Below, piece by piece: positions 24,117 to 56,158 of a stretch of 64,000 nucleotides of DNA. A model generated the notes under the pieces. That model was not told the origin of the DNA. It saw nothing but the letters and a program-made list of their open reading frames with translations, and did not search any database. This stretch comes from Rhizobiaceae bacterium (GTDB lineage: Bacteria; Pseudomonadota; Alphaproteobacteria; Rhizobiales; Rhizobiaceae), in NCBI GenBank assembly GCA_045047085.1, contig JASFYT010000034.1, forward strand, positions 2,098 to 66,097, given 5' to 3'. How positions within the stretch are numbered: the first letter of the stretch is position 1; every line of letters begins with the position of its first letter. Position numbers and translations under genes: made by a program.

Positions 24117-24117
24117 T

Positions 24118-28807: not shown

Positions 28808-28816
28808 TCTAATATC

Positions 28817-33655: not shown

Positions 33656-33658
33656 AAT

Positions 33659-34516
33659 TTATCCCTTCACCGCACCAAGTGACAAACCCTCGACCAGATA
33701 ACGTTGGGCATAAAGTGCAAGCGCAAAGGTGGGTGCAATTGAAAGCACGATGCCTGCAGCAATTTGGCCATACTGGATGCCTGAAGCCGTAATAAAGGCG
33801 AGCGCACCAACGGTTACCGGTTGCTTGTCGGCGGAAGCCAAAACCAATGCGAAGATGAAGTTATTCCACGAAAATATGAAGGCCAGCAGGCCAGCCGCAG
33901 CGATGCCCGGTGCAGCTAATGGCAGGGCAATTTTGCGGAATGTTGAAAACCAACTGTGACCGGCAATGCGATAGGCATATTCTATATCGGCTGGAATATC
34001 TTCAAAATAGCCCCGCACAATCCAGAGGATCAACGGCAATACAATGAGCTGGTAGACCCAGATCAACCCGATATAAGTGTTAGCAAGGCCAATCTGTTGG
34101 AAATAGATCGTTAGCGGCAACAACACCAAAAGCGGGGGCGCAAACTTGAATGACAGCAGCGTAAAAGCGATATCTTCAGAGCCACGAAATTTCAAACGGG
34201 CAAAGGCATAAGCTGCCGGAACGCCAAGGATAAGCCCGACCGCGACCGAAGCTGTCGAAAGGAACAGGGAATTAAAGAGGTTCCGCATGAATTCAATTTT
34301 CAGCGACCCAGCCGCCGTATTCAATTCCCCAGTAATCAGCGCCACGTAATTTGTGACGGTTGGTGCAAAATCAATCGATGGTGGCACACGCAGGATGGTC
34401 TCATTGGTCTGGAACGACATTAATATGATCCATAAAATCGGGAACATAAAAAACAGGATTACCAGCGTAATTGCGATAGAGCGCAGGACGCGTTCAGTGA
34501 TGCTTGAGGTTTCCAT
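33659..34516 (-). CDS. ABC transporter permease (carbohydrate type)
   Basis: Hydrophobic, with the EAA-like loop IEYAYRIAGHSWFSTFRKIALP. The ATG at 34516 is preceded by GGAGAGG. Confidence 0.85.
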   Translation of the reverse strand: METSSITERVLRSIAITLVILFFMFPILWIILMSFQTNETILRVPPSIDFAPTVTNYVALITGELNTAAGSLKIEFMRNLFNSLFLSTASVAVGLILGVPAAYAFARLKFRGSEDIAFTLLSFKFAPPLLVLLPLTIYFQQIGLANTYIGLIWVYQLIVLPLILWIVRGYFEDIPADIEYAYRIAGHSWFSTFRKIALPLAAPGIAAAGLLAFIFSWNNFIFALVLASADKQPVTVGALAFITASGIQYGQIAAGIVLSIAPTFALALYAQRYLVEGLSLGAVKG

Positions 34517-34526
34517 TGGCCTCTCC

Positions 34527-35450
34527 TTACTCGTAACCGCGCGCTTTTTCGCGCAGACGCAGCCAGTTTTTGATAAATACATTCGACAGGAAGTATGTGA
34601 TCGCCCAAAGGATCATTAGCAACGCTGACGAACGTGCCACATTGGTCGACTGGAAGAAATTCAGATAGGCTTCCACCTGAAATACCGTCAGTTGATCGCC
34701 CGGCCCGCCTTGGGTCATGGCGTAGATAATGTCAAATTGTTGGATCGATTCAATCACACGGAACAAGGTCGCCGTTAGCAAAAAGGGCGTCAGCATTGGT
34801 AGTGTGATGCGCCAAAACACGAAAAGACGTGGAACACCATCCAGCTCAGCCGCCTCAAAAGGTTGGCGCGGCAGTGAACGTAGTCCGGCCAGAAGCAGAA
34901 TCATGATGAAGGGTGTATAGACCCACACATCAACAATCACCACAGTCAGCATTGCTGTTGCAGGATCAGATGCCCAGCGCATATTCTCGAAACCAAGCAG
35001 TGTTGCGAAATAGCTGAGAATACCAAATCCCGGATTGGTCATCAATTTCCACATAAGAGATGCAAGTGCTGGCGCCGTCATCAGCGGCATAAGCAACATA
35101 ATCGAAACGAAATTGTTGAAGCGGTTTCTTCTCTGCAAAAGCAACGCAATACCAAGTCCGAGCAACAGTTCGATACCAACCGTCGAAACCGCATATATCA
35201 TTGAGACTTTGAGCGTGTTCCAGAACGATGGATCGGTCATGAAATTCAGGTAGTTTTCACCCCAATTGAACTTCCTGGCCCATGGTTGCGAAAGACGGTA
35301 GCGCTGTAACGAATAGATTGCCGCTGTAAAAAACGGAATGAGAATGCCGATACAGGTCAAAAGTGCAGGCAAGCTTAAGAGATAGGGCAGATAACGCCGG
35401 CTAACTCTGAAACGTCGCTTTGGCAGATCGGTAATATTTGCGTCAGACAT
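34527..35450 (-). CDS. ABC transporter permease (carbohydrate type)
   Basis: 307 aa with FEAAELDGVPRLFVFWRITLP. Confidence 0.85.
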   Translation of the reverse strand: MSDANITDLPKRRFRVSRRYLPYLLSLPALLTCIGILIPFFTAAIYSLQRYRLSQPWARKFNWGENYLNFMTDPSFWNTLKVSMIYAVSTVGIELLLGLGIALLLQRRNRFNNFVSIMLLMPLMTAPALASLMWKLMTNPGFGILSYFATLLGFENMRWASDPATAMLTVVIVDVWVYTPFIMILLLAGLRSLPRQPFEAAELDGVPRLFVFWRITLPMLTPFLLTATLFRVIESIQQFDIIYAMTQGGPGDQLTVFQVEAYLNFFQSTNVARSSALLMILWAITYFLSNVFIKNWLRLREKARGYE

Positions 35451-35567
35451 ATTTCATTTTTCCGCCGCCCAATATTGCAAAGGGAGACCGTCTTAGGTTT
35501 TACAAGTTGTATTAAAAGCGAACCCGCCTCGTTCGGAGAAAGAAGAGGCGAGCCCGGTCGGGAGGCT

Positions 35568-37013
35568 TTAACCCAACCCTGCTTCTTTCAGTTGACGATC
35601 AACGCTCTGGGCCAATTGGTCCAAACCTTCATCCACAGGCACTTCTTTGGCGACCATTTTTTGAAGCGTTGCAGCCCATTCCGTAGTCAGATCAAAGAAT
35701 AATGGTTGCGCTGTAAAGTGGATTTTCGCGCCCGGCGCTGAAATATCGTGCATTTCAACATAACCGGGATAACTTTTATCCAACCGATCGCGGAACATTT
35801 CATCTGCCCAAACTGACTTGCGAACAGGATTGACGAAATCCATCTTGGTAGCGCCAAACAGACCATGCTCAGGACCGGAAGCCCATTGCATGAAGTACCA
35901 TGCCGCATCTTTCTGCTTTGAGAAGCTGGACATTGCCAGAGACCAAATCCAGATATTTGGTGTTGGTGCTGAGGCTTCAGGATTAGCAGCAAACGGTGCA
36001 AAGGCAAGATTTCCAGCCTCGGCATTGTCGCCACCATTCATGAAATAACCCAGGATATCCGCGTCGAAGATCATTGCAGATTTACCGGCACCAAGATCAG
36101 TACCAGCCTGATACCAAGTGTGGGTAGACCAATCCGGTGCACCACTTTCCTGAATCATCTGAACCCATTTCTCATGGTAGCTTCTTGATACGTCAGTGTT
36201 CATAGCCGCTGACAATTTACCGTCAGCGCCCACGTTCAAGTCTTTTTGACCAAAGTTTGCGTATCCTGAAAGAAATCCTGGATGGATTGTTGCCCATGAG
36301 CGGGAGCCGCGAACGCCAATACCATAAGCTCCATCGATACCAGCTTTTGCTGCCGCAGCAGTATCAAGCAACTCATCGATATTCTTTGGAACAGACAATC
36401 CTGCCTGCTTAAACATACGATTATTATATGTTAGGTTATTTTGCTCATAACCCCAAGGGATACACCATTGCTTGGCGTCATCTGAACCAAGAGCACCACC
36501 CGGCTTGCCATTCCATGCACAAGATGCACGAACACCTGGCAGCATATCATTCCAATTATAGTCAGGGTTAGTTTTTGCAGGATCATTGATCCACTCATTG
36601 AGATCATCGATCCAACCGGCAGGACCGTAGGTCCATGTCATATAAGCACCGGTCATGAATGCATCATATTCAGTTGAACCAGATGAAAGTGCAGCAGTTA
36701 CTTTATCAAAGTAGACATCTTCCGGGAAAATATCGTATTGAATATCCATTCCGGTGAGTTTTTTGAAATTCTCAAGATTTGCAATCATCGCATCGGCATA
36801 GGGGTGCTTGTTCAGAAGAAGCTTAACGGTCGTACCCGCATGCTTTTTCCAATCAAAACCGTTCTGCGCCAAAGCGTTTGTAGCGGCTGCATTGACAAGC
36901 ACCCCGGCAGTTGCTGCCGACACACCCAACGCACCCAATCCGCGGATAACACCGCGGCGACTGACGCCTCCTTTTACAAAGGATTCAATCAAGTCCCTTT
37001 CTTTCTCATACAT
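35568..37013 (-). CDS. periplasmic solute-binding protein (family 1) with a twin-arginine signal
   Basis: SRRGVIRGLGALGVSAATAGVLVNAAATNALA signal. The ATG at 37013 is preceded by GGAGGA. Confidence 0.85.
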   Translation of the reverse strand: MYEKERDLIESFVKGGVSRRGVIRGLGALGVSAATAGVLVNAAATNALAQNGFDWKKHAGTTVKLLLNKHPYADAMIANLENFKKLTGMDIQYDIFPEDVYFDKVTAALSSGSTEYDAFMTGAYMTWTYGPAGWIDDLNEWINDPAKTNPDYNWNDMLPGVRASCAWNGKPGGALGSDDAKQWCIPWGYEQNNLTYNNRMFKQAGLSVPKNIDELLDTAAAAKAGIDGAYGIGVRGSRSWATIHPGFLSGYANFGQKDLNVGADGKLSAAMNTDVSRSYHEKWVQMIQESGAPDWSTHTWYQAGTDLGAGKSAMIFDADILGYFMNGGDNAEAGNLAFAPFAANPEASAPTPNIWIWSLAMSSFSKQKDAAWYFMQWASGPEHGLFGATKMDFVNPVRKSVWADEMFRDRLDKSYPGYVEMHDISAPGAKIHFTAQPLFFDLTTEWAATLQKMVAKEVPVDEGLDQLAQSVDRQLKEAGLG

Positions 37014-37030
37014 AGGTATTCCTCCAGTTT

Positions 37031-37999
37031 TCAATCGTGATGATTGAAATTTAAGAGCGCATTTGCGGTACGCTCATCGGTGATGAGACCGCTTAACAAG
37101 CCACTCATCAAAATCGACCCGATAGCGCGGGCCTTTCCTTTGCCACCCGCAACGGCGACAATTCTACTATTTTTCAAATCCGATAGACCAACAGAGATGG
37201 TGCGCGCTGTCAGTGAGGTCTCGAGGCTTTCTCCATCATCATTGAAAAAATGTCCCAAAAGCTCGCCCACCCCTCCATGTGCTTTCACCTCCTCAATTTC
37301 CTCTTGTTCAACCATGCCGGAAGATACAAGCTGAGCGCCCGGCTCGACGGTACCAATTCCGACAAATTTCAACTTGGACTGCTCCGCCATTTGCATCACA
37401 TCTGATACACCGCGTTGGGCAAGAAGCACTTCTCTGTCTTCAATCGAATTGGCAAAGAACGGCACGGGCATCACATACGATTCTGCTCCGGTCTTTTCCG
37501 CCATCCGATGCATTACATCATGTGGGTTAGCTGAAAAATTCCGCGTCAAACCACCAAGCAGCGATACAAATCGCACACCATTTGCATCCATTCTTGGCAA
37601 TTGAGAAACACTTGCTGAAAGCGTTCGCCCATGGCCGACACCAATCAACTCATTTGCACCACTTAAAATTTCACGGTTAAGAAACCTCGCACCGGCAATG
37701 CTGAGAGCGCGGGTGGGCAACGACTCTTCATTCAATTCCGGCACAACTTCACAATACTGAAGACCAAAACGTTCAGAAATAGCCATTTCCAGCGCTACAC
37801 ATTCGGCAATTTCACCATCAATGGTAACTTTAACTACGCCTTCTTGATTGGCTCGGGTGATCAAACGATGAGCTTTCACGCCAGTTACACCTAGTCGCTT
37901 GGCAACATCTGCCTGAGTTAACCCACCGGCATAATGAAGCCAGGCAGCCCGGATCGCGAGGCTTAAATCTTCATCTCTTTTTGAACTGGATCGTGCCAC
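37031..37999 (-). CDS. SorC/DeoR-type sugar-binding transcriptional regulator (EryD-like), copy 1
   Basis: The N-terminal HTH AAWLHYAGGLTQADVAKRLGVTGVKAHRLI is followed by a sugar-phosphate-binding domain (IGVGHGRTL...). Confidence 0.8.
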   Translation of the reverse strand: MARSSSKRDEDLSLAIRAAWLHYAGGLTQADVAKRLGVTGVKAHRLITRANQEGVVKVTIDGEIAECVALEMAISERFGLQYCEVVPELNEESLPTRALSIAGARFLNREILSGANELIGVGHGRTLSASVSQLPRMDANGVRFVSLLGGLTRNFSANPHDVMHRMAEKTGAESYVMPVPFFANSIEDREVLLAQRGVSDVMQMAEQSKLKFVGIGTVEPGAQLVSSGMVEQEEIEEVKAHGGVGELLGHFFNDDGESLETSLTARTISVGLSDLKNSRIVAVAGGKGKARAIGSILMSGLLSGLITDERTANALLNFNHHD

Positions 38000-38162: not shown

Positions 38163-39311
38163 TTAAGAAGCGGTGCGCAGGATTTCAATCAGCTTGGATT
38201 CCTGCAGATACACGGGATTACCCTTCATCGATGATGATGAAAGAGAGGCAATGGCAATCTCATCAAAATCTTCGGAACTGACACCCACATCGCTCAATGA
38301 CGGCAAACCACAGCGTCGCGACCAAGCAGCCAATTCATCAAAGGAGATCTCGGACTCAACACCAAGAGCGTCAGCAATCCAGTGTTGAATTTTATGAAAG
38401 CGTTCTCGTATTTGTGTCGGTAATTCCGGTACAGAGAAATTAGATTTCAAAACATGGGGTAAAAGTATCCCGCAGATAACTCCATGAGGAGCAGCTGCCC
38501 TCCCCCCAATAACACCTGCAAATCCGTGAACAGCTCCCAATCCAGAATTTGCCAACGCCAAGCCTCCGCAATGGCTTACCCATGCCAGATCATCACGGGC
38601 CTTTTCATCTTCACCCTGCATAAGACGCACCAAAGCCAATAATCCTAGTGGTATAGCATCTCGGCAAAGCGCATCAGAAAACCGATTTGCCTTGCAAGAA
38701 ACATAAGATTCAATCACCTGCGTGACAGCATCAAGTCCACTGGCAAGTGTTACTGAACGTGATGTATTGTCTGTTAAAGCTGGATCAATTATTGCTAAGT
38801 TTGGCAACATACGTACATCCCGTAACGATACCTTGCGTCGATGATCCGGCACTCCAATGACTGCGTTCCTAGTAACTTCGGCCCCAGTTCCCGCCGTCGT
38901 TGGAATTGCTACAAATGGCAAGGGTGGTTGTTCAAGTGCCAAACCTTTCCCAACGACTTCCAGATAATCAAGAATCGGTTTATCGGCAGGAACCAGCGCC
39001 GCAATAGCCTTACCTGCGTCAATAACCGAACCGCCCCCCAGAGAAACTATTACATCGGCCTCAAATTCACGCGCGACCAGTACTCCGTTTTCAATCAGGG
39101 AGATTTCCGGCTCGCTTGCGCAGCTAAATTGTCCAACACGAATACCTTCCCGCTCTAGCGCATCTACCAACCAGACAGCGCGCGCGGGATTTGCACCATG
39201 AACCAGAAAGATATTTTTGCCGAGGGTCGCAATATCTTCGGCAGCCTGCTTGGCACAGCCTCTGCCAAAACGAATGTCCTGCGCAGTGGAAATCGAAAAA
39301 ATGCCTGGCAT
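38163..39311 (-). CDS. iron-containing (group III) alcohol dehydrogenase
   Basis: 382 aa with SLGGGSVIDAGKAIA and the GLGAVHG metal-site region. Confidence 0.8.
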   Translation of the reverse strand: MPGIFSISTAQDIRFGRGCAKQAAEDIATLGKNIFLVHGANPARAVWLVDALEREGIRVGQFSCASEPEISLIENGVLVAREFEADVIVSLGGGSVIDAGKAIAALVPADKPILDYLEVVGKGLALEQPPLPFVAIPTTAGTGAEVTRNAVIGVPDHRRKVSLRDVRMLPNLAIIDPALTDNTSRSVTLASGLDAVTQVIESYVSCKANRFSDALCRDAIPLGLLALVRLMQGEDEKARDDLAWVSHCGGLALANSGLGAVHGFAGVIGGRAAAPHGVICGILLPHVLKSNFSVPELPTQIRERFHKIQHWIADALGVESEISFDELAAWSRRCGLPSLSDVGVSSEDFDEIAIASLSSSSMKGNPVYLQESKLIEILRTAS

Positions 39312-39313
39312 TG

Positions 39314-41077
39314 CTAAATCCTGTCCCCAAATTCCTCTTCGACCACCTCCCGCATGGCGTTCAATATCACCACGACCGAAGCTGCGCCTGGATCAACGTG
39401 TCCCAACGAACGCAATCCCAGCTTGGCAGAGCGTCCCTTTTTTGATTTCATTTGCACAGTCGCATTCTTGCCCTTCTCGGCTCCGTCACATGCAGCCTGA
39501 AGACAGGCGATAATGCTTCCACCAGCCTCCTGTTCGCGCGCGGCGTGTTCAACAGCTGGCGTCCAAGCATCCACCATCGTCTTATCGCCGGGAGCGGCTC
39601 CTCCAAGATCAACAATACCGTTTCTAATTGCATCCAACCATGAAACAAGCGCCATTGAATCCAGATTAAGCCGATCATTCACCGCTTTTGATGCCCTCTG
39701 AAAGGCTGTTCCATATAGCGGCCCCACGGAAGCACCGACGGCATCTAAGAAATTCTTTCCTGCCTTTGCGCACATAACCGATATAGTGACTTCATCTTCC
39801 GAAAGACCATCACGAATAGCACGCCACCCCACATCCATGGCAATGCCATGATCTGCATCACCAATGACACCATCCAGTTCACACAAATACCCCTTATTTT
39901 CTCCAATTTGTTCAGTGATCCGCAGCAGCATTCGACGAAAGATTTCGGGGGTAACATCGCCCTCAGCAATTAAATCTTCTCTCGAAATATCCGACTCAAT
40001 CTTCTTGGTAACCATTGGTGCATGTGAGCGCCGTCGTGGTCTTTGGTTAGGTGAAATTTTGATCTCCCCAACTTGTAAAGCAGCGGTTTCACAGGGATGG
40101 TCCAGCATTTTGATCAACTGATCATCCAGCTTCATTACCGTGACCGAAGCGCCAGCCATTTCAAGCGATGTAACATAATTCCCCACCCAGGATTGATATA
40201 GGGAAACTCCGAGCCCACACAGTCTGCTACGTATTTGGCGATGCAAGATATAAAGTTCCATCAATGATGTTGAACCTAGCCCATTCACCAATACGGCCAC
40301 CCTGTCGCCTTTGCCAAATTCAATATCTGCAACAATCAGATCCATCAACCGGTCTGCAACCGCATTGGCAGGTTCAAGTGTGGTTCTGGAAATCCCAGGT
40401 TCGCCGTGAATTCCCATCCCTACTTCCATCTCATCCGGACCAATCTCGAAGTTCGGTCTACGCGTTTGAGGTAGCGAGCAGGCACCAAGAGCCACCCCAG
40501 CCGACCTCGTCATAGCATTCGCATGCCTCGCAATGAGTTCAACCTCATCCATAGAATAATCCAAATCAGCCGCCGCCCCAGCACATTTAAATACAAAGAA
40601 TGTTCCGGCAATCCCCCGGCGTTCACTAATAATTTTTGCTGAGGCTACATCATCTGTAACTGTGATGGAATTTGCCTTAATACCTTCAGAGCCAAGTTCC
40701 TCTACAGCCATATCAAAATTCATAACGTCACCAGTATAATTTCCATAGAGAAACAACACACCTGCTCCCCCGTCTGCTGCACGTGCTGCATCCATGATCT
40801 GCTCCGGCGAAGGGGAAGCAAACACGTTTCCCACAGCCGAAGCATCTGCCAACCCCTTACCGACATATCCAGAAAACGCCGGCTCATGGCCAGAACCACC
40901 ACCCACGACAATGCCAACTTTGCCCTCGCGTGGACCTTTTATAGAAACCACAGCCCTACCCGTCGCTCCTTCGACACAAAGCATTTCGGGGTGAGCTCCA
41001 ACCATACCATCGATCAATTCCTCAATGACATGGTCGGCATCATTTATCAGCTTTTTTGTCTTCTGCGTATCTATCAT
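39314..41077 (-). CDS. ATP-dependent dihydroxyacetone-kinase-family protein (fused DhaK+DhaL domains); possible triose/tetrulose kinase
   Basis: 587 aa with GGGSGHEPAFSGYVG (DhaK) and GVIGDADHGIAM (DhaL). Confidence 0.85.
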   Translation of the reverse strand: MIDTQKTKKLINDADHVIEELIDGMVGAHPEMLCVEGATGRAVVSIKGPREGKVGIVVGGGSGHEPAFSGYVGKGLADASAVGNVFASPSPEQIMDAARAADGGAGVLFLYGNYTGDVMNFDMAVEELGSEGIKANSITVTDDVASAKIISERRGIAGTFFVFKCAGAAADLDYSMDEVELIARHANAMTRSAGVALGACSLPQTRRPNFEIGPDEMEVGMGIHGEPGISRTTLEPANAVADRLMDLIVADIEFGKGDRVAVLVNGLGSTSLMELYILHRQIRSRLCGLGVSLYQSWVGNYVTSLEMAGASVTVMKLDDQLIKMLDHPCETAALQVGEIKISPNQRPRRRSHAPMVTKKIESDISREDLIAEGDVTPEIFRRMLLRITEQIGENKGYLCELDGVIGDADHGIAMDVGWRAIRDGLSEDEVTISVMCAKAGKNFLDAVGASVGPLYGTAFQRASKAVNDRLNLDSMALVSWLDAIRNGIVDLGGAAPGDKTMVDAWTPAVEHAAREQEAGGSIIACLQAACDGAEKGKNATVQMKSKKGRSAKLGLRSLGHVDPGAASVVVILNAMREVVEEEFGDRI

Positions 41078-41439
41078 GTGACCCTCGATTTCAATAGGCT
41101 AGCCATCTGCCAATCATTCATTGCTGAAAATTAGTACATATTTATTGTTCATCTAGAAACAGTGCAAAATCAACAGCTGGAAAAATTACTCCAAACACTG
41201 ACGTCCCAAGTGCGGTTGTTGTCGTGGTCATCCGTCAGCCATTTGCGTGAAGGAATTATTATGGGTTAACAACCATACCGTCCTAATCAAGCGGGATTGA
41301 ATAACGACACAATACAGGAATATGACATTTTCTTTGGAAGAAGAAACAATTCGGCAATCCATCATTGATACCTGCCTCCACATGAGTACCTGCAGCTTAC
41401 AGTGGTTGGGTATCATATGCACGTGATCGTAATCATGTA

Positions 41440-41484
41440 AAATTCATACAATTGCAAAGTATGTATTGACATTTGTATGAATTT
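41440..41484. promoter_or_regulatory. perfect 12-bp inverted repeat AAATTCATACAA-N21-TTGTATGAATTT (candidate operator) in a divergent promoter region
   Basis: The arms are at 41440..41451 and 41473..41484. The spacer contains TTGACA (41466..41471). It lies about 80 nt upstream of the rpe-like start. Confidence 0.5.
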
Positions 41485-41564
41485 GAGTTGTTTAGAATTA
41501 CCATTTGATTTTCAATTCCCCCGGTCCCCCGGCGCGACATCACGCCCGTCTTGGTAGGAAGAAT

Positions 41565-42257
41565 ATGACCCACGAGGCACATCTCTCGCTTAAGCAAAGT
41601 TGTCGTGGCATCAGTCTGGGTATTTTTGCGGGTGATTTTGGAAATTTCAGAAGCAATATGCAATCAGCCGCTAAATGGGGCTGCAATGTTCTCCACTTTG
41701 ATGTCATGGATGGCCTATTTGTTCCTCAGATGACGGGCGGTCCGGGGTTTGTAAAAGCCCTTAAAGGTGAAATGATCCTTGATGTGCATCTAATGGTTCA
41801 GAAGCCACTGGTACATATCGCATCATATGTCGAAGCAGGTGCGGATATCGTGACAATCCATGCCGAATCTGAAGAACCAGTGGCGGCATTTAAGGCCATT
41901 CGAACTGCTGCTGAGAAATCGGGACGACCGGTCATGGCCGGCATATCGCTCATGCCCGGTACTTCGATTGAGAACATCAAAGAGCTATTTGACTTAAAAC
42001 CCGATCTCATTTTGGTTCTCGCCCTTGATCCTCGAACGAGCGACTCAACTGACGTCACGAAGGCATGTGTCCGGCTTCAGGAAATCAGAACGCTCACGGC
42101 TGAATTCTCCCCAATTCTTGCATTCGATGGCGGTGTCACACTCGACACAATTGCTGAAATTTCAAGTTCATCAGCAGAACTCGTTGTTAGCGGAAGTGCC
42201 GTACTGAAATCAGCAAATCCATCTGAGGCCTTTCGTTTAATGCAAAGTGCTCTCTAG
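41565..42257 (+). CDS. ribulose-phosphate-3-epimerase-family protein (divergent)
   Basis: LHFDVMDGLFVP, DVHLMV, and FDGGV motifs. The usual MSVNPGFGGQ block is replaced by LALDPRTSDS. The ATG at 41565 has an AGGAAG RBS. Confidence 0.7.
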   Translation: MTHEAHLSLKQSCRGISLGIFAGDFGNFRSNMQSAAKWGCNVLHFDVMDGLFVPQMTGGPGFVKALKGEMILDVHLMVQKPLVHIASYVEAGADIVTIHAESEEPVAAFKAIRTAAEKSGRPVMAGISLMPGTSIENIKELFDLKPDLILVLALDPRTSDSTDVTKACVRLQEIRTLTAEFSPILAFDGGVTLDTIAEISSSSAELVVSGSAVLKSANPSEAFRLMQSAL

Positions 42258-42352
42258 CAGGTCAATCCTAATTACCAATAGAGCGCATTTAAGAATTTGG
42301 ATCACTGAGCGCGCGCTCAAAGTACATGTAGTTACTATCAAAGGAAGATAAT

Positions 42353-43234
42353 ATGGCAGACATTGATGACATCAAAGATGGTAAAGACTTTGGTCTGGAC
42401 ACGCCCCAGGACAAGCAGGGATTTTTTCTCAAAGGAAATGCCAACTACGATTGGGGTTTGAAGAACCGCATGAGCCGAATTTTCAATCCGAAAACTGGCC
42501 GCACGGTTATGCTTGCTTTTGATCATGGTTATTTCCAAGGCCCAACAAGCGGATTGGAACGGATTGACCTCAACATCCTTCCGCTCATCGAGCATGCAGA
42601 TGTAATGATGTGCACACGCGGCATCCTTCGTTCTGTAGTTCCACCAACAATCACAAAGCCCGTTGTCATGCGCGCCTCGGGCGGCAACTCGATACTTTCT
42701 GAATTGTCCAATGAAACGATTGCGGTTGACATCGATGATGCCATTCGCATGGGTGCCTGTGCCATGGCAGCACAAATCTATATTGGGTCCGAGTTCGAGC
42801 ACAAATCAATCACCAATGTAATCAATCTCATCGATCGTGGTCAGCGCTATGGTATCCCAACTCTCGCTGTCACCGGTGTAGGCAAAGACATGGCACGTGA
42901 TGCGCGCTATTTCGGTCTTGCAACCCGCATCGCTGCCGAGATTGGCTCACATTATGTGAAAAGCTATTTCGTTGAAGAGGGATTTGAAAAAGTCTGCGCA
43001 GCCTGCCCAGTGCCCATCGTTATTGCGGGGGGTAAAAAGCTTCCTGAAGCTGATGCTCTCGACATGGCCTATAAAGCGATTGATCAGGGTGCTGCCGGGG
43101 TTGATATGGGCCGCAACATTTTCCAGGCCGATGATCCAGTAGCAATGATCCAGGCGGTTTCCAGTGTTGTCCATGATCTGACGAAGCCGGAAAAAGCCTT
43201 GCAGATGTACAATGATCTAAAAGCAAAAGGTTAG
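42353..43234 (+). CDS. lsrF: LsrF-like class-I aldolase-fold enzyme (3-hydroxy-5-phosphonooxypentane-2,4-dione thiolase family)
   Basis: [16 protein letters not shown]...[34 protein letters not shown]...MCTRGILRS...[12 protein letters not shown]...[10 protein letters not shown] tracks E. coli LsrF closely as I remember it. Needs confirmation by alignment. Confidence 0.7.
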
Positions 43235-43322
43235 CAGATAACAGACTCCCAAAACTGGCCCCTAAACCTACGTTTTGGGTTTGGGGCACTTTTTGAAACT
43301 AAACAGACAGTCTCAGTTCGGC

Positions 43323-44954
43323 ATGGAGGTAATCTTGAACTCAAGTGAAATGCAAGATATCAAAGATCTTCTTGTTATAGGTGGTGGTATTAACGGTGTC
43401 GGCATTGCCCGCGATGCAGCCGGCCGTGGTCTGAACGTATGTCTGGCAGAAATGGGTGACTTGGCGGGCGCGACATCATCCGCTTCGACAAAGCTTTTTC
43501 ACGGCGGGCTTCGTTATCTCGAGTATTTTGAATTTGGCCTGGTGCGTCATGCACTCGCAGAGCGGGAAACTTTATTGCGGGCCATGCCGCATATAAGCTG
43601 GCCAATGCGTTTTGTGCTTCCCTACCACAAGGACATGCGTTTTGAGAATTCAACTCCGACATCCCGACTTCTAAATATCTTCATGCCCTGGATGAAAGGT
43701 CGTCGGCCAGCATGGTTAATCAGATTTGGTCTGTTCCTTTACGATCATTTGGGCGGGAGGACTGTTCTGCCGGGAACTTCGACTATCTATCTTCAAAAAA
43801 GTGTCGAAGGTGAAGCCATCAATGACAAGTTTGTTAAGGCATATGAATATTCTGATTGCTGGATTGAGGATTCGCGACTGGTGGTCCTTAATGCTCGCGA
43901 CGCAGAAAAGCGCGGTGCTGAAATATGTGTTCGGACCAAAGTTATATCAGCCATTCGTGTTGACGATATTTGGGAAGCTACTCTTGAGGATGTAAACAGC
44001 GGAAACAGGCGTGTCGTGCGCGCCAAGATGCTTGTGAATGCGGCTGGTCCTTGGGTGGATGATGTTATTCAGAACAAGGCACGACTAAATTCACGCGAGG
44101 GTGTCAGGTTGGTCCGAGGCAGCCACATTGTCACAAAGCGTCTTTATGATCATGACAAATGCTATTTATTCCAGGGCACCGATGGCCGCATCATATTCGC
44201 AATTCCCTATGAAACAGATTTTACACTCATCGGTACGACAGATGCCAAACATTCTGATCTTTCGGAACAACCAATTTGTACAGACGAAGAAAAGCAATAT
44301 CTCGTCGACTTTGCCAATGGCTATCTTAAATCACCGATCTCCGTCGACGACATTGTTTGGAGTTATTCAGGGGTGCGCCCACTTTATGATGACGGTGCGG
44401 AATCTGCTTCAGCTGCGACACGCGATTACGTGATGACCATTGATGATTACGAAGGTGCGCCGTTGTTGAATATCTTCGGTGGCAAGATCACTACTTATCG
44501 GTGTCTAGCGGAAGATGCGTTGGATAAAATCAAAGATTACTTCCCAAACCTCTCAGGTAAGTGGACCGCAGGAATTGCCTTGCCAGGTGGAGATTTTCCT
44601 GTTGATGGCTTTGCTGATCTTACTCAGTCGCTTATTGACCGCTATTCATTTTTGGATACTAAAATGGCCAGCCGGCTCATCAAAGCCTATGGGACCGAGG
44701 CCGCAGGTATTTTCGAAGGTGCAGAAAGCTTTAATGATCTCGGGCACCATTTCGGAGCAGGCTTAACCGAACGCGAGGTTGAGTGGCTCATGCATAATGA
44801 GTATGCTCAGATAGCCGAAGATATCATCTGGCGCCGTAGCAAGCTGGGCCTGCGCCTGTCATCTTCTCAGATCGAATACCTTGAAAAATGGATTCAAACG
44901 AACCTGAACCTCCAGAATCGCAGACGCCTTACCGCTTTGCTTGTCAACCAGTGA
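43323..44954 (+). CDS. glpD: FAD-dependent glycerol-3-phosphate-dehydrogenase-family enzyme (GlpD / EryB-like), copy 2
   Basis: DLLVIGGGINGVGIARDAAGRGL, TKLFHGGLRYLE, and IIWRRSK. The start is uncertain (43323 or 43350). Confidence 0.85.
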   Translation: MEVILNSSEMQDIKDLLVIGGGINGVGIARDAAGRGLNVCLAEMGDLAGATSSASTKLFHGGLRYLEYFEFGLVRHALAERETLLRAMPHISWPMRFVLPYHKDMRFENSTPTSRLLNIFMPWMKGRRPAWLIRFGLFLYDHLGGRTVLPGTSTIYLQKSVEGEAINDKFVKAYEYSDCWIEDSRLVVLNARDAEKRGAEICVRTKVISAIRVDDIWEATLEDVNSGNRRVVRAKMLVNAAGPWVDDVIQNKARLNSREGVRLVRGSHIVTKRLYDHDKCYLFQGTDGRIIFAIPYETDFTLIGTTDAKHSDLSEQPICTDEEKQYLVDFANGYLKSPISVDDIVWSYSGVRPLYDDGAESASAATRDYVMTIDDYEGAPLLNIFGGKITTYRCLAEDALDKIKDYFPNLSGKWTAGIALPGGDFPVDGFADLTQSLIDRYSFLDTKMASRLIKAYGTEAAGIFEGAESFNDLGHHFGAGLTEREVEWLMHNEYAQIAEDIIWRRSKLGLRLSSSQIEYLEKWIQTNLNLQNRRRLTALLVNQ

Positions 44955-45353
44955 CTCACCAGTGCAAATGAGAGGTATCAGACCATGACGAACAGCGGTT
45001 TTAACTTTCAAGCCAACAGTTTGTTTGTTTCATTGAAATGCTCTCTGCACTTTGAATGGACCAATTTCACAATATCCAAATTGCAATCAGTCAACATCGG
45101 TACGGAGACTTCGCCGGTCCAGGCGCCGTTGTCCTTCCAATGCGTGTATTGAGCTCGGACCCTTCATTGATGTAATGGAACATTGCTCTTTAACTGCACG
45201 AATAAGAGGAAAGCTCGGTATGACAAAACACTGAATTCTGTCATCATGGTGAGAGTTAAAAGCCAGCAATCCATTGGCAAAACCCAAGGCTTCGTTGAGC
45301 AGTTTATTCATCTTCCAGCTGGTTCCATTTCAAAGTTTTGCATTGGTGGACAT
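44928..45353 (-). pseudogene. decayed, truncated tpiA/EryH-like gene
   Basis: Starts [21 protein letters not shown]. Other frames continue GAWTGEVSVPMLTDCNLDIVKLVHS...FNETN and then [20 protein letters not shown]. It is collinear with the intact Tpi at 22900..23670 but has at least one stop and two frameshifts, and the C-terminal half is missing. Confidence 0.75.
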
Positions 45354-45369: not shown

Positions 45370-46305
45370 CTAAATGTTGAGATCTTGAACGCCTGAATCG
45401 AAATGAGGCGCCCAAAAAGCCACACTCTCGGCGATATGGGTGAGCACAAGCCGGTCGTCAGGCTCTCGTTCTTTGAAGCTGAGTTCAAGGCAGATTTCGT
45501 TGTTGTGTGCCCCGCCGGCATGAAGAGCATCGATCAGGAGATCGGGCTGGATCAACCCATTGTCGTTGTGTTCTTTAGTGAATGGGCGATGCCCTCCTTT
45601 ATCCAACAACGATTGCTTGATATGGATGATAGGAGATACAAGCGGTACCGCCTGCGCCCACGAATAGGGATCGTAATCATTTTTGTTTTTGCTGGTTATG
45701 TCACCGTGATCGATGTCGGCCATCATCCACATTGGGATCGCCATATCCATTTTTGTCAAACGGTCCTGCAATCGAAGGCAGCCATCAATGGTCTCGCCAA
45801 ATTCACGTCCAATGCTCATGGGTTCCCAAAAAAGGAATTCCAATCCGACTTGCTTTCCGTGTTCTGCTACCTCCGACCAGGCATCGATCGCTATTTTTGT
45901 CAGTTCTTCTCGCCTAACCGGATCGTCAAAATCGCGATAGGTGAAAATGGCAAATTGAGTTCCTAAAGATTTTCCACCGAGATCTGATATGATCTCCGCA
46001 TTGGTTTTGAACCAGTTGATATAATAACGCCTGACTTCAGCATCTGGATGCCCGAAGTGGTTAAGTCGGCCATAAGGACCGGTCATTCCGGACGTGACTC
46101 GGACCCCAGTTCTCGAGCAAGCATGGTGCATTTGACGGACTAGCCGTGCAATGGTTTTGCCAGGCCAACTTGGGTTGATAAATTCATGGGTGAGCTGCAC
46201 ATCGCGAATCCTCAAATCGGTTGCGATAGTGTAAATTAGATCGTCACAATCAGCAAAACGGTTCACTAACGGATTTGTATTGAGCGAGAGGGTGAAAGCC
46301 ATCAT
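45370..46305 (-). CDS. xylose-isomerase-like TIM-barrel protein (EryC-like), full length
   Basis: 311 aa. It is a paralog of the truncated ORF at 23685..24116 (FTLSLNTNPLVN...THEFINPSWP...MTGPYGRLN.FGHPD...ICLELSFKEREP). Confidence 0.75.
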   Translation of the reverse strand: MMAFTLSLNTNPLVNRFADCDDLIYTIATDLRIRDVQLTHEFINPSWPGKTIARLVRQMHHACSRTGVRVTSGMTGPYGRLNHFGHPDAEVRRYYINWFKTNAEIISDLGGKSLGTQFAIFTYRDFDDPVRREELTKIAIDAWSEVAEHGKQVGLEFLFWEPMSIGREFGETIDGCLRLQDRLTKMDMAIPMWMMADIDHGDITSKNKNDYDPYSWAQAVPLVSPIIHIKQSLLDKGGHRPFTKEHNDNGLIQPDLLIDALHAGGAHNNEICLELSFKEREPDDRLVLTHIAESVAFWAPHFDSGVQDLNI

Positions 46306-46457: not shown

Positions 46458-47534
46458 TCAGGCGACATCGATTGCAAGCTTGGTGATTGCATCAAATAGG
46501 TGCACCCGGTCGACGGCGGGAAACAGTTTGATATCGCCGCCCACGGACCATTCTAGGCGTTCCCTTGAGATTGAAATAACTTCGTTTCCATCAACGTCTA
46601 GATAGAGATGGGTTTCAGGGCCGGTAGGCTCAACAACTTTAATTTTTGCTGGGAAACCTTGCCCGCTCATTTTTGGTTCAAGGTGTTCGGGACGAATACC
46701 ATAAACTACCTTTTGACCAACTTCTACCTTTGAAGATGGGGGGATGGGCAAGGAAAGATTGCCGGATTTCACAATCTTCGACTTCTTATCGAGAACAATT
46801 TCGCCTTCCATCAGGTTCATGCCTGGAGAGCCGATAAATTGTGCGACAAACAGGTTTGCAGGTTTGTCGTAAATATCAAGTGGCTTGCCAGATTGCTCGA
46901 TAATTCCATCGCGCATGATCACAACAATATCGGCCATGGTCATGGCTTCAATCTGGTCGTGTGTAACGTAGACAGTTGTTGTTTTGAGTTTTTGGTGAAG
47001 CTCCTTGATTTCTGTGCGCATCTGTACACGTAATTTTGCATCAAGGTTGGAAAGTGGCTCATCGAAAAGGAACACATCCGGATTACGAACGATCGCTCTG
47101 CCCATTGCCACCCGTTGGCGCTGACCACCCGACAATTCTTTGGGGTAGCGTTCAAGGTAGGGCTCCAGGCTCAATATTTCAGATGCCCATTTAACGCGTT
47201 CATCAACAATCGAATCTTCTGTCTTTTTCAAACGCATTGAGAACGCAATGTTCTCTTTGACGGTCATATGGGCATAAAGTGCATAGTTCTGGAAAACCAT
47301 GGCTATGTTTCTATCCTTTGGATGGACATCGTTCACAATCCGATTGCCGATCGAAACATCACCGGCGGTGATCGCCTCCAAACCAGCCAACATGCGCAGC
47401 AAGGTTGATTTTCCGCAACCAGATGGCCCCAATAGTACCACAAACTGACCGTCTTCAATCTTGAGATCGATCCCGTGCAACACTTCTATTGCTCCATAAT
47501 TCTTCTTAACTTTGCTAATTGTAACGGAACTCAT
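46458..47534 (-). CDS. ABC sugar/polyol transporter ATP-binding protein (MalK/UgpC-like)
   Basis: GPSGCGKST, LSGGQRQR, and VFLFDEP. Start ATG at 47534; the longer track ORF overlaps the upstream gene. Confidence 0.9.
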   Translation of the reverse strand: MSSVTISKVKKNYGAIEVLHGIDLKIEDGQFVVLLGPSGCGKSTLLRMLAGLEAITAGDVSIGNRIVNDVHPKDRNIAMVFQNYALYAHMTVKENIAFSMRLKKTEDSIVDERVKWASEILSLEPYLERYPKELSGGQRQRVAMGRAIVRNPDVFLFDEPLSNLDAKLRVQMRTEIKELHQKLKTTTVYVTHDQIEAMTMADIVVIMRDGIIEQSGKPLDIYDKPANLFVAQFIGSPGMNLMEGEIVLDKKSKIVKSGNLSLPIPPSSKVEVGQKVVYGIRPEHLEPKMSGQGFPAKIKVVEPTGPETHLYLDVDGNEVISISRERLEWSVGGDIKLFPAVDRVHLFDAITKLAIDVA

Positions 47535-47538
47535 TTCA

Positions 47539-48390
47539 CTACGCCCCTTCGAAAAAATTTGTGTTTTGATTAGCTGTTCGGGCGGCGATAATTTGCTCTC
47601 CGATTTCAACGAAACCGTCTCCACCACAGGCGTTCGCAACAAAGGTCGGTAAAGCCTCCATACGGCCGACAAACTCTTGTACATTAGCGACGCCACACGC
47701 GTTGGGAAAAAAATCAAACATTGGAGAGTCGTTGGGGCTATCACCGCAATAGATGAACCTGTCTTTGTCTCTTTCCACATCGATGGAAAATTCTTCCATC
47801 AAAAACTTGCGAGTCATGGAAAGTTTATCCCAATCCCCAAACCAACCGTTGACATGAATGGACGAAGCTTTAGCGACCGCGCCGACATCATGGAAATGCT
47901 TGAGGATCCGTTCCACATCATCTTCACTTAAAGCCGGGACGTCTTCGCGAAAATCAATTGCGAGATCCGCCTCACGATAGAGTTGATCCGATGCAACGGC
48001 AGAGCCTTTCACATCATCGACAATAACCCTTGCAAGGTCATTGAGTTTTTTGCGATTTTTGTTGCGGGTCGCATCATCCATCATGAAGGTACGCTTCATT
48101 TGGCGCATCTCATGATCGTATCGAAATGCTAAAGCGCCATTTTCGCCGACCACGCCGGCTACTGGCCAAAACCTTGCGACCATGTCGCACCAACCTGCAG
48201 GTCTGCCGGTAATCGGGATAACCAACAACCCCGTATCCGAAAGCCTCTCCAACATGTTATAAGCTGCAGCCGGAAGCCGACCATTTGTTGTTATCGTGTC
48301 ATCAATATCAGTGAGTACACCAATTAAGTTTTGGCTGGTATCGTGCGGGATCTCCGCGACTGATTTCATCGACTCAATTTTTCGTGCCAT
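47539..48390 (-). CDS. HAD-superfamily hydrolase (subfamily IIB-like phosphatase)
   Basis: GVLTDIDDTITTNG (DxDxT) and YCGDSPNDSPMF (GDxxND). Confidence 0.75.
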   Translation of the reverse strand: MARKIESMKSVAEIPHDTSQNLIGVLTDIDDTITTNGRLPAAAYNMLERLSDTGLLVIPITGRPAGWCDMVARFWPVAGVVGENGALAFRYDHEMRQMKRTFMMDDATRNKNRKKLNDLARVIVDDVKGSAVASDQLYREADLAIDFREDVPALSEDDVERILKHFHDVGAVAKASSIHVNGWFGDWDKLSMTRKFLMEEFSIDVERDKDRFIYCGDSPNDSPMFDFFPNACGVANVQEFVGRMEALPTFVANACGGDGFVEIGEQIIAARTANQNTNFFEGA

Positions 48391-48396
48391 TTCCTG

Positions 48397-49950: not shown

Positions 49951-50018
49951 AAGTATTACTCCGAAAAAAAGTACACCACCCGAAAAAATCCCGGGTGGTG
50001 CAATATTAGTCCTACGCT

Positions 50019-51545: not shown

Positions 51546-51598
51546 GGTTTCCTCCATTTGGTGAGCGGTTTCTGCGTCTAAGTTATGTCCAAGCCCAA

Positions 51599-53834: not shown

Positions 53835-53846
53835 TTACGTTTTCAC

Positions 53847-54572: not shown

Positions 54573-54659
54573 ATTGTCCTCCCTTGTTTACTTGTCGTCA
54601 GTTAAATTTACTTGTCGTTAGTTAAATTTTTGGTGACCTTCATTTTTGTATCCAAAGCC

Positions 54660-56015: not shown

Positions 56016-56158
56016 CCAACGCTCCTCATTGGTAGTTTTCAAATGTATGAAGATACTTTGCATATGTCAATATCATTTGTAGGGTAGCCATTGTCAAAAG
56101 TAAAAATCAGCACCAAACACCCTTGACCGAACTGGTTTCTGGCTCGATAAACGTAAAC

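Follow-up and report, generated by a model that had tools for sequence, protein, structure and literature searches.

A solitary LsrF-like thiolase among deoxy-sugar and polyol genes in a Rhizobiaceae genome and its possible role outside autoinducer-2 degradation

The window analyzed here is a 64,000-nucleotide stretch of the genome of a Rhizobiaceae bacterium (contig JASFYT010000034.1, positions 2,098 to 66,097, assembly GCA_045047085.1), and its central feature is a gene for an LsrF-like protein that lies beside genes of polyol and sugar metabolism. To our knowledge, LsrF has a single documented role, namely that of ending the autoinducer-2 (AI-2) quorum-sensing signal. The assembly that contains the window is 4.25 Mb in length and 97.7% complete. 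Protein families in the window were assigned using profile models with curated cut-offs (PF, TIGR, and NF identifiers). The five open reading frames (ORFs) that a first-pass annotation of this DNA had singled out, encoding an iron alcohol dehydrogenase (Fe-ADH), a dihydroxyacetone kinase (DAK) family protein, an Rpe-like protein, the LsrF-like protein, and a GlpD-like protein, were all recovered at the same coordinates. These genes and the elements between them are as follows.

38163..39311, minus strand: group III iron alcohol dehydrogenase, FucO/ErcA-like (PF00465 and PF25137).
39314..41077, minus strand: fused DhaK-DhaL (ATP-type) dihydroxyacetone-kinase-family kinase (Dak1 and Dak2 domains).
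41441..41412, minus strand: promoter-like site TTTACA-18-TATGAT, facing the DAK gene and abutting the operator-like element.
41440..41484, no strand assigned: paired operator-like element in the divergent promoter region, with a TTGACA box facing rpe-lsrF.
41565..42257, plus strand: LsrE-like divergent protein of the ribulose-phosphate-3-epimerase family (PF00834; ORF readable from TTG at 41505).
42353..43234, plus strand: LsrF-type class I aldolase-fold, coenzyme A (CoA)–dependent thiolase of the 3-hydroxy-5-phosphonooxypentane-2,4-dione (P-HPD) thiolase family (NF006081 and alignment with the E. coli protein).
43260..43286, plus strand: terminator-like hairpin between lsrF and glpD2, an 11-pair stem followed by a T run (consensus match only).
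43323..44954, plus strand: GlpD2, an accessory paralogue of the FAD-dependent glycerol-3-phosphate-dehydrogenase family (NF008899; ORF readable from TTG at 43275).

The LsrF-like protein scored 508 bits against the LsrF equivalog model NF006081 (cut-off 297) and is 68% identical to E. coli K-12 LsrF over its full length with zero gaps. In this alignment, the lysine of the VKSY segment, which had been proposed as the Schiff-base context, falls on Lys203 of the E. coli enzyme. Structural work on LsrF described a class I aldolase fold with the corresponding catalytic residues and named D57, H58, K203, G226, G227, D251, G253, and R254 as catalytic or ligand-contact positions (PMC2728841); all eight are identical in the window protein. 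Identity to the LsrFs of canonical alphaproteobacterial lsr operons is 79–82%. An ordinary class I fructose-bisphosphate aldolase was ruled out, since the protein passes the LsrF equivalog model and shows these levels of identity to genuine LsrFs.

The gene is an orphan. A single copy of LsrF is present in the whole genome, and the absence of lsr genes from the window, as noted in the first-pass annotation, extends to all 4.25 Mb. The best whole-genome match to E. coli LsrG reached only an E value of 0.2. No LsrK ortholog was found in the whole genome, the best match being the XylB-like FGGY kinase of the window at 27–28% identity, and no LsrB ortholog was found there either, the best match (34% identical) lying on contig C82 next to a 31%-identical paralogue of the bifunctional class II aldolase/short-chain dehydrogenase (SDR) protein described below. 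LsrACDB was not found anywhere in the genome. Canonical lsr genes on other contigs, which would have made the protein a likely part of AI-2 turnover, were sought and not found. LsrF is also rare: one genome in a class-wide sample of 300 has it, as does one of 40 relatives, and the nearest LsrF sequences (82–87% identical) come from other families. Genome-wide phylogenetic profiling gave no information because of this rarity.

A survey of LsrF neighborhoods, as suggested in that annotation, was carried out on 80 alpha-, beta-, and gammaproteobacterial loci encoding an LsrF with 70% or more identity to that of the window, with neighboring genes mapped by ORF clustering and tblastn. Canonical lsr loci accounted for 23 of the 80 and came from Enterobacterales, Rhodobacter, Tropicimonas, and related alphaproteobacteria, and the other 57 were without lsr genes. 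Among these 57 non-canonical loci, a class II aldolase or a bifunctional class II aldolase/SDR was encoded in 28, homologues of MtnK and/or MtnA within 10 kb of lsrF in 18 (several of which add a ribose-type ABC importer and an RbsD/FucU mutarotase), GlpD-type flavoenzymes in 8 (two subfamilies with a mutual identity of only 28%), and a DAK-type kinase in 5. None of these four kinds of partner occurred in any of the 23 canonical loci. The partners commoner than those seen at first, that is, the polyol ABC/FGGY/HAD/SDR operon, the class II aldolase (or aldolase/SDR), and the mtnK-mtnA cluster, had been missed in the first reading of the DNA.

Several of the surveyed loci can be compared to the window gene by gene. 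Locus L010 has the order triose-phosphate isomerase (TIM), DAK (57% identical and divergent), rpe, lsrF, and thus the same divergent layout of DAK and rpe-lsrF as the window. In L016, a single direction of transcription runs through HAD, EryC (72%), Fe-ADH (59%), TIM, RpiB (recognized solely from the DNA upstream of rpe), rpe, lsrF, and glpD (70%); the EryC is a homologue of the one at 45370-46305 in the window. Locus L009 has HAD, a class II aldolase-like gene, a 430-aa FGGY kinase, rpe, and lsrF, the first three as a trio directly upstream of rpe-lsrF. Two compact plasmid operons contain neither lsrK, lsrG, nor an Rpe-like gene and combine a ribose-type ABC importer with a 572-aa GlpD-like flavoenzyme: that of Sagittula sp. 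MA-2 plasmid p3 (L095, 4126-14033) encodes a solute-binding protein, ATPase, permease, SorC, GlpD-like protein, FGGY kinase, LsrF, and class II aldolase in overlapping reading frames, and that of Shinella sp. H4-D48 plasmid p1 (L096, 11950-21888) encodes LsrF, aldolase/SDR, ABC proteins, FGGY kinase, and a GlpD-like protein.

In a tree of LsrF sequences, proteins from canonical operons and from non-canonical loci interleave at short distances (70–87% identity). The window protein groups with those of L006, L009, L010, L013, L016, L022, and L029; the sister of this group is the MtnK/MtnA-linked one, and the alphaproteobacterial lsr group lies next to it. Such interleaving would be expected if the same reaction took place in all contexts, and it argues for one shared reaction.

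P-HPD has the structure CH3-CO-CHOH-CO-CH2OP, and when its acetyl group moves to CoA, dihydroxyacetone phosphate (DHAP) is left. LsrF was reportedly found by Marques et al. in 2014 to turn P-HPD and CoA into DHAP and acetyl-CoA. This thiolysis has been restated in a recent preprint (bioRxiv 10.64898/2026.06.09.730415). The reading that we prefer, held tentatively and judged just short of an even chance, is that LsrE-like protein and LsrF form a terminal module, which would cleave P-HPD or a close 3-hydroxy-2,4-diketone phosphate, made from deoxypentose or polyol precursors other than AI-2, to DHAP and an acyl-CoA.

A different possibility is that LsrF is a plain class I aldolase that splits a ketose 1-phosphate into DHAP and an aldehyde (glycolaldehyde, acetaldehyde, or lactaldehyde). 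FGGY phosphorylation followed by GlpD-like or glycerol-1-phosphate-dehydrogenase-like oxidation, or Fe-ADH oxidation followed by DAK, would then supply the substrate, the Rpe-like and EryC-like proteins would adjust C3, and LsrF would run parallel to the FucA-like class II aldolase of relatives. Such an aldolase is encoded divergently from rpe-lsrF(-glpD) in L006, L013, and L029, and the same set of 430-aa FGGY kinase, HAD, GlpD, and FucA-like aldolase occurs without LsrF in genome G253. Every partner combination of kinase and dehydrogenase would yield ketose 1-phosphates, the classic aldolase substrates, the fold and catalytic residues of LsrF are those of class I aldolases (PMC2728841), and a FucO-like Fe-ADH could reduce the aldehyde product. 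We nevertheless consider a plain aldolase unlikely. The window protein is close to E. coli LsrF and closer still to the LsrFs of canonical operons, for which the documented reaction is CoA-dependent thiolysis, and the two kinds of context are interleaved in the tree. Moreover, a plain aldolase would leave unexplained both the need for LsrF beside a class II aldolase and the frequent presence of an SDR or other dehydrogenase next to it.

The Rpe-like protein is the second component of the proposed thiolysis module. Its probable start is the ATG at 41565 (230 aa, in agreement with homologues), which replaces 41505. It scored 131 bits on TIGR01163, under the equivalog cut-off of 212.6, and 78.5 bits on the 254-position "epimerase" model NF010658 (cut-off 530). 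The metal-binding and catalytic motifs HFDVMD, DVHLMV, and DGGV are retained, and LALDPRTSDS indeed stands where E. coli Rpe has NPGFGGQ, as had been pointed out from the sequence. This replacement is not an oddity of the locus, however. The NPGFGGQ loop is replaced by LDPR..D across the whole Rpe-like family, the members of which are regular partners of LsrF: the gene lies directly 5′ of lsrF in 24 of the 57 non-canonical loci, and homologues 41–47% identical to the window protein, with the same LDPR loop, occur within the canonical alphaproteobacterial lsr loci L023, L031, L034, L036, L037, and L045, where in the first three the gene is located between lsrG and lsrA. The occurrence of the family inside canonical lsr operons marks it as an LsrE-like partner of LsrF. 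Identity to Salmonella LsrE is 29%, no closer than the 31% to E. coli Rpe, so that comparison of the sequences did not support orthology; the protein appears to be a positional equivalent of Salmonella LsrE rather than its sequence orthologue. These associations suggest that the epimerase has a real role in the processing of phosphorylated 4,5-dihydroxypentane-2,3-dione (P-DPD) or P-HPD.

Two further observations concern this protein. The LDPR-loop gene in the lsr operons of Rhodobacter, Tropicimonas, and their relatives constitutes a second, non-orthologous "LsrE". The genome contains one copy of the Rpe-like gene, and a sequence that matches Rpe better is divided between the ends of two contigs (C51:11010-11459 and C26:76406-76513), a split of the canonical rpe that may be an assembly break; the presence of this match ruled out the Rpe-like protein as the sole Rpe of the cell.

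The presence of this family, together with LsrFs about 80% identical to that of the window, in the canonical lsr operons of Rhodobacter and Tropicimonas could also be taken to mean that the locus serves to scavenge AI-2 (DPD) or AI-2-like keto-pentoses by a non-canonical route. A polyol-type ABC importer and XylB-like FGGY kinase, or DAK acting on the HOCH2-CO isomer of DPD, would take the place of LsrACDB and LsrK, the part of LsrG would be played by a TIM-like or class II aldolase-like enzyme, and LsrE/LsrF would finish as in E. coli. Consistent with this, the regulators are of the SorC/LsrR family, the closest match to LsrK in the genome is the FGGY kinase of the window, TIM paralogues lie beside rpe-lsrF in L010 and L016 (a TIM-type reaction would formally be that of LsrG), and growth on DPD by bacteria lacking LsrB has been reported in a 2026 preprint (bioRxiv 10.64898/2026.06.09.730415). 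Against it, the FGGY kinases are only 25–28% identical to LsrK and score best as XylB-like, the binding protein is of the CUT1 polyol type and not LsrB-like, and the processing of DPD has no use for SDR, the glycerol-1-phosphate-dehydrogenase-like enzyme, GlpD-like enzymes, MtnK, or MtnA. LsrG and LsrB were both sought in the genome and not found; LuxS was not searched for. Scavenging of this kind is quite unlikely in our estimation.

The third gene on the plus strand, glpD2, probably starts at the ATG at 43323, as judged from alignments of homologues. GlpD2 scored 742 bits on the NF008899 equivalog (cut-off 360) and is 47% identical to GlpD1 of the window and 50% identical to a copy on contig C41. 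Genes for a DeoR/GlpR-type regulator and for the binding protein and two ATPases of an ABC transporter lie beside the latter, which looks like the housekeeping copy. GlpD2 lacks such a context of GlpR-type regulator and glycerol uptake genes and follows lsrF instead, and homologues 66–70% identical likewise come after lsrF in L006, L013, L016, and L022.

On the opposite strand, the DAK protein scored 621 bits on the subfamily model NF011049 (cut-off 492) and 387 bits on the glycerone-kinase equivalog dak_ATP (TIGR02361), the cut-off of which (575) was not reached. The best NCBIfam matches of the Fe-ADH, at about 190 bits, were under all equivalog cut-offs. The link of these two genes to lsrF goes beyond local chance, as it recurs in L010, in L016, and in four further loci with DhaK and lsrF (L065, L068, L070, and L085). 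The association is conserved in few genomes and is not the commonest one of LsrF.

The four DhaK loci, which are of Rhizobiaceae type, have a CUT1 ABC transporter and a DhaK-only gene followed by lsrF and an aldolase/SDR-like gene. About 680 nt after the DhaK gene could hold a DhaL gene, and a second DhnA-family paralogue (26–28% identical to LsrF) lies upstream on the other strand.

The first-pass annotation had proposed a linear route in which a polyol is oxidized to a tetrulose or pentulose, phosphorylated by DAK, epimerized, oxidized by the GlpD-like enzyme, and cleaved by LsrF. Its end in DHAP and an acyl-CoA is still the best reading. The order of DAK before GlpD is chemically awkward, as DAK phosphorylates the CH2OH beside the ketone and gives a ketose 1-phosphate, in which the carbon beside CH2OP that a GlpD-type enzyme would oxidize is already a ketone. 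In addition, tetruloses cannot form a beta-diketone, and DAK and Fe-ADH are fully explained by tetritol routes into EryC, TpiB, and RpiB, all of which are present in the window. The literal order is thus very unlikely, even though the divergence of DAK from rpe-lsrF is conserved in L010, Fe-ADH shares an operon with rpe-lsrF-glpD in L016, DhaK precedes LsrF in the four loci named above, and the promoter-like site facing DAK abuts the shared operator. It is more likely that the DAK and GlpD-like enzymes belong to parallel entry routes. As for the participation of DAK and Fe-ADH in an LsrF route at all, their conservation near lsrF in a few loci speaks for it, but they could also be accounted for as a tetritol branch feeding EryC, TpiB, and RpiB.

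The promoter region between DAK and rpe provided evidence of a different kind. A paired motif, TTACAWTTGCAAA-N8-TAGACAWTTGCAA, was found upstream of rpe in L006, L010, L013, L016, and L029. A position weight matrix was built from the rpe-upstream sites and used to scan the whole genome for paired sites. The rpe site of the window ranked first with a score of 32.1. The second-best pair in the genome (29.0; the next score was 25.6), which was outside the training set of the matrix, lies at the promoter of the neighboring polyol-type operon. It matches the rpe operator at 21 of 28 positions, as counted by eye, and contains TTGACA-17-TACATT. The third-best pair lies on contig C71, next to an AraC-type gene, and was excluded as probably unconnected. 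The second operator and the regulator gene that diverges from it are as follows.

56037..56069, minus strand: second paired operator, in the promoter region from which the polyol-type operon and the SorC2 gene diverge (position weight matrix).
56123..57151, plus strand: SorC2, a regulator of the SorC/LsrR family (PF04198 cluster).

SorC2 clusters with the PF04198 SorC-type regulators of mtnK/mtnA/ABC/rpe/lsrF clusters; it is 34–37% identical to those mtnK-cluster regulators vs 26–29% to LsrR and other SorC proteins. It is a candidate regulator of both operator-bearing promoters.

A more distant relative of the same element leads to contig C92 of this genome (locus L100), where positions 1-8265 hold a cluster of 5-deoxyribose/methylthioribose type that includes a ribose-type ABC permease and ATPase. 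Its other genes are as follows.

2739-4001: MtnK (489 bits, cut-off 275).
4010-5095: MtnA (481 bits, cut-off 271).
5107-6096, minus strand: SorC regulator.
6196-8265: bifunctional class II aldolase/SDR (854 bits, cut-off 639).

Neither rpe nor lsrF lies beside mtnK-mtnA in this cluster, and its SorC is a 72–78% orthologue of the mtnK-cluster regulators. A stand-alone DrdA/FucA-like aldolase was not found in the genome, in which the best match was 27% identical; the bifunctional aldolase/SDR is present instead. The 12-nt inverted repeat of the rpe promoter has no exact copy elsewhere in the genome, and a copy with one mismatch precedes mtnK on C92. Local alignment of the rpe-lsrF promoter with the C92 mtnK promoter extended over 45–49 nt with a score of 41 (z about 9.6), compared to 19.4 +/- 2.2 with a maximum of 31 for 2500 controls consisting of shuffles and random genomic windows. 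Across the fetched loci, the top motif matches were either upstream of rpe or in the divergent mtnK/ABC promoters of MtnK/MtnA-linked loci. The mtnK/ABC promoters carry a related palindrome, TGTCAWTTGTCAA...TTGACAWTTG, which was found in seven loci, that is, six loci of type C and the C92 cluster itself; the palindromes of the latter are CAATTGTCAATAG/CTATTGACAATTG and TGACAATTGTCA, in its two promoter regions. We read these similarities as one regulon family that would link rpe-lsrF to the adjacent polyol operon and, less tightly, to the C92 cluster of mtnK, mtnA, and aldolase/SDR.

The polyol-type operon that bears the second operator converges on the rpe-lsrF-glpD2 genes. Its genes, together with the other neighbors of the locus, are as follows.

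44898..45326, minus strand: truncated TIM-like stump overlapping the 3′ end of glpD2 (tblastn).
45370..46305, minus strand: EryC-like protein of xylose-isomerase fold (AP_endonuc_2, PF01261), intact copy.
46458..56015, minus strand: convergent polyol-type operon as a whole (family matches), consisting of the next eight entries.
46458-47534, minus strand: MalK/UgpC-like ATPase.
47539-48390, minus strand: HAD-IIB phosphatase.
48397-49950, minus strand: XylB-like FGGY kinase.
50019-about 51550, minus strand: CUT1 solute-binding protein.
51599-53397, minus strand: two permeases.
53397-53765, minus strand: dead SDR stump of an aldolase/SDR gene.
53847-54572, minus strand: SDR.
54660-56015, minus strand: glycerol-1-phosphate-dehydrogenase-like enzyme.
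22415..37999, minus strand: Sinorhizobium-type erythritol/pentitol locus (context, by families and locus type), with the next four entries.
22415-22879, minus strand: D-erythrulose-4-phosphate isomerase (RpiB/EryI) equivalog (NF051858, 253 bits, cut-off 240).
22900-23670, minus strand: TpiB-like protein, an intact TIM paralogue.
23685-24116, minus strand: EryC copy with an internal deletion (truncated paralogue).
37031-37999, minus strand: SorC1, a SorC-family regulator.

The block from the ATPase to the SDR (ATPase-HAD-FGGY-binding protein-permease-SDR, 46458-54572) converges on rpe-lsrF(-glpD) in L001/L006, L004, L022, and L029 as well. The CUT1 binding protein resembles the sugar/polyol binders 5IAI and 4RYA. 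The stump at 53397-53765, between the permease and SDR genes, shares 56% identity with the SDR half of aldolase/SDR proteins. In relatives, an intact separate gene for the SDR half is found at this position, and a 360-aa protein at 26230-27312, in the first locus, matches the aldolase half only.

That locus, at 22415-37999, is of the type described for Sinorhizobium (PMC3599248). Its order is RpiB/EryI, TpiB-like, truncated EryC, HAD, 430-aa FGGY kinase, class II aldolase-like, GlpD1/EryB-like, 2-hydroxyacid dehydrogenase, FGGY/EryA-like, two ATPases, two permeases, binding protein, and SorC1. Clustered homologues of EryA, EryB, EryC, TpiB, RpiB/EryI, and EryD are thus present around rpe-lsrF and not at it. 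The SorC regulators of the window are 28–31% identical to LsrR. The TIM stump is 42% identical over 144 aa (tblastn) to the TIM family that adjoins rpe-lsrF in L010 and L016. The island shows decay in the form of this stump, the truncated EryC, the SDR stump, and IS3 remnants (20776-21921 and about 57160-57631). The rarity of LsrF, the occurrence of its nearest relatives in other families, and the IS3 remnants point to horizontal acquisition of the module, with which the content and decay of the island also fit; the rpe-lsrF module, separated from the importer, kinase, and isomerase of AI-2 processing, was probably acquired by horizontal transfer into an erythritol/pentitol island.

Such an island could simply hold five unrelated neighbors, with LsrF as a functionless or redundant passenger. 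GlpD2 would then be a glycerol-3-phosphate dehydrogenase, the Rpe-like protein a pentulose-phosphate epimerase for pentitols, and DAK and Fe-ADH enzymes for tetritols or glycerol. The decay and rearrangement listed above, the rarity of LsrF, and the occurrence of GlpD2 homologues without LsrF are all as this would have it. A chance assembly is nonetheless highly improbable, as LsrF is intact with all catalytic residues kept, the adjacency of rpe and lsrF is conserved across families and contexts together with a conserved operator, and the genome has a canonical rpe and a housekeeping-type glpD at other sites.

The identities of the genes, the orphan LsrF, its conserved neighborhoods, and the shared operators are the observations on which a mechanism can be built. 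For the substrate, the sequence of the reactions, and what GlpD2, Fe-ADH, DAK, and SDR contribute, we infer the following. Several entry routes would make a phosphorylated 3-hydroxy-2,4-diketone, either P-HPD, which can be viewed as acetyl-DHAP, or a close analogue. The LsrE-like enzyme would set the configuration at C3, between the two carbonyls. LsrF would then form a Schiff base via Lys203 and transfer the acyl group to CoA, giving DHAP and acetyl-CoA or another acyl-CoA.

Three entry routes are envisaged. First, the co-regulated polyol-type operon would provide uptake and FGGY phosphorylation, after which GlpD2 or the glycerol-1-phosphate-dehydrogenase-like enzyme would oxidize the CHOH beside CH2OP, a sequence that would mirror the GlpK/GlpD and EryA/EryB pattern. 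Second, Fe-ADH oxidation could precede DAK phosphorylation, as in the GldA/DhaK pattern. Third, the C92 mtnK-mtnA-aldolase/SDR cluster could convert 5-deoxyribose or methylthioribose to a ketose 1-phosphate, with MtnK/MtnA yielding 5-deoxyribulose or methylthioribulose 1-phosphate, and C4 oxidation would follow. The recurring kinase and dehydrogenase families would all give a ketose phosphate X-CHOH-CO-CH2OP or its 5-phosphate isomer. The C4 oxidation of 5-deoxyribulose 1-phosphate or of 1-deoxyxylulose 5-phosphate gives exactly P-HPD. Oxidation of a 5-deoxypentulose 1-phosphate at C4 by the SDR part of the aldolase/SDR would thus lead exactly to P-HPD, and so would GlpD-type oxidation of a 1-deoxypentulose 5-phosphate. 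Because these compounds give exactly P-HPD, the most economical substrates would be 5-deoxy or 1-deoxy pentoses, pentuloses, or pentitols. The proposed route would explain the conservation of LsrF (70–87%) and its near-constant dehydrogenase partner, as well as the replacement or supplementation by LsrF of the DrdA-type aldolase of the 5-deoxyribose pathway (PMC6079011).

Several points weigh against this proposal. First, GlpD2 was not upheld as an obligate partner of LsrF. Its closest homologues among the 300 class-level genomes (56–66% identical) occur in 11 genomes, all without LsrF and usually as the sole GlpD there, which makes its role uncertain, and the enzyme may simply be a glycerol-3-phosphate or polyol-phosphate dehydrogenase. 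In G253, a GlpD homologue is flanked by the same 430-aa FGGY, HAD, and FucA-like genes, an arrangement that implies a working kinase/GlpD/class II aldolase route without LsrF. Second, rpe, lsrF, and glpD had been taken as one plus-strand operon; the genes are as described, but the hairpin at 43260-43286 makes a single three-gene transcript uncertain, and glpD2 may be expressed separately or by read-through. The operator evidence, for its part, is motif similarity only. Third, the FucO-like Fe-ADH could simply reduce an aldehyde, and known tetritol pathways account for Fe-ADH, DAK, EryC, TIM, and RpiB alike. Fourth, the adjacent operon of this genome retains the SDR half only as a dead stump, and the aldolase/SDR family is related to the RhaEW-type aldolase plus aldehyde dehydrogenase, an activity that would complete a DHAP shunt without LsrF. 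Finally, no natural source of 1-deoxy or 5-deoxy pentitols has been established.

With these reservations, LsrF and its LsrE-like partner may be regarded as an end-module that is mobile, has its own regulation, and has been recruited into the catabolism of deoxy sugars and polyols, a role undescribed in the searchable literature, in which no paper was found that ties LsrF to 5-deoxyribose, methylthioribulose, erythritol, or DAK kinases. A broader and rather doubtful extension is a widespread, undescribed "acyl-DHAP" pathway, in which 5-deoxyribose, methylthioribose, 1-deoxypentuloses, and deoxy-pentitols would be converted via a ketose phosphate to a 3-hydroxy-2,4-diketone phosphate and then to DHAP and acetyl-CoA, and of which AI-2 degradation by lsr would be a specialized offshoot of an older module. 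Three kinase systems (MtnK/MtnA, FGGY with GlpD-like enzymes, or alcohol dehydrogenase with DAK) would feed it, and thiolysis would proceed without the release of a toxic aldehyde. 5-Deoxyribose is a waste sugar of radical-SAM enzymes.

In 57 of the 80 surveyed genomes, the enzyme occurs without any AI-2 machinery, beside genes for deoxy-sugar salvage or polyol use. If the route proposed here holds, the disposal of 5-deoxyribose and methylthioribose would have an aldehyde-free exit, and LsrE-type epimerases as well as the large unassigned aldolase/SDR fusion family would gain a function. Furthermore, "lsrF" annotations would have to be reread, as they now prompt the inference of AI-2 sensing in marine and soil bacteria that are unable to import AI-2 via Lsr.

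The Lsr system of E. coli and Salmonella comprises the kinase LsrK, the isomerase LsrG, the thiolase LsrF, the epimerase-like protein LsrE, and the SorC-type repressor LsrR. Compared to this system, the window has an LsrF of 68% identity in which the catalytic lysine and the phosphate site are the same, a partner of the Rpe family, SorC-family regulators, and the same expected products, DHAP and acetyl-CoA. It differs in that the genome is without LsrK, LsrG, and LsrACDB, the neighbors are polyol and deoxy-sugar genes, and the epimerase shares only 29% identity with Salmonella LsrE and differs in its phosphate loop.

Compared to 5-deoxyribose salvage, or the DHAP shunt, in which DrdK or MtnK, DrdI or MtnA, and the class II aldolase DrdA/Ald2 act (PMC6079011), the likeness lies in MtnK/MtnA with a ribose-type ABC importer (accompanied by a mutarotase in relatives), which are the commonest neighbors of rpe-lsrF outside lsr loci, and in the C92 cluster of this genome with its related promoter element. 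The differences are that a bifunctional aldolase/SDR plus LsrE/LsrF stands in place of the stand-alone DrdA-type aldolase and that the proposed exit would be oxidation and thiolysis to acetyl-CoA, not aldol cleavage to acetaldehyde.

Polyol pathways provide a third comparison. The erythritol-adonitol-L-arabitol locus of Sinorhizobium encodes EryA, EryB, EryC, TpiB, RpiB, EryD, LalA, and RbtABC (PMC3599248). Like this and other rhizobial and Brucella erythritol loci, the window has EryA-, EryB-, EryC-, and TpiB-like proteins, an RpiB/EryI equivalog, a SorC regulator, and a polyol ABC transporter, and its DAK and dehydrogenase resemble the tetritol routes of Mycobacterium smegmatis with their DAK-type erythrulose kinases. 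The described erythritol and tetritol loci are, however, without LsrF and an LsrE-like epimerase, and tetrulose phosphates cannot give the beta-diketone that LsrF requires. The two routes from glycerol to DHAP, GlpK-GlpD and GldA-DhaK, are echoed by the combinations of FGGY kinase with GlpD-like enzyme and of alcohol dehydrogenase with DAK that recur beside LsrF; unlike in those routes, the enzymes here would act on an acetyl- or acyl-bearing glycerol to give an acyl-DHAP, from which LsrF would free DHAP. Finally, the proposed chemistry is akin to the non-phosphorylative L-fucose and L-rhamnose pathways and to oxidative 2-deoxyribose catabolism (bioRxiv 10.1101/205583), in which a beta-hydroxyl is oxidized and C–C cleavage follows, in one case with CoA, whereas those beta-dicarbonyl routes use other enzyme families and proceed through unphosphorylated intermediates.

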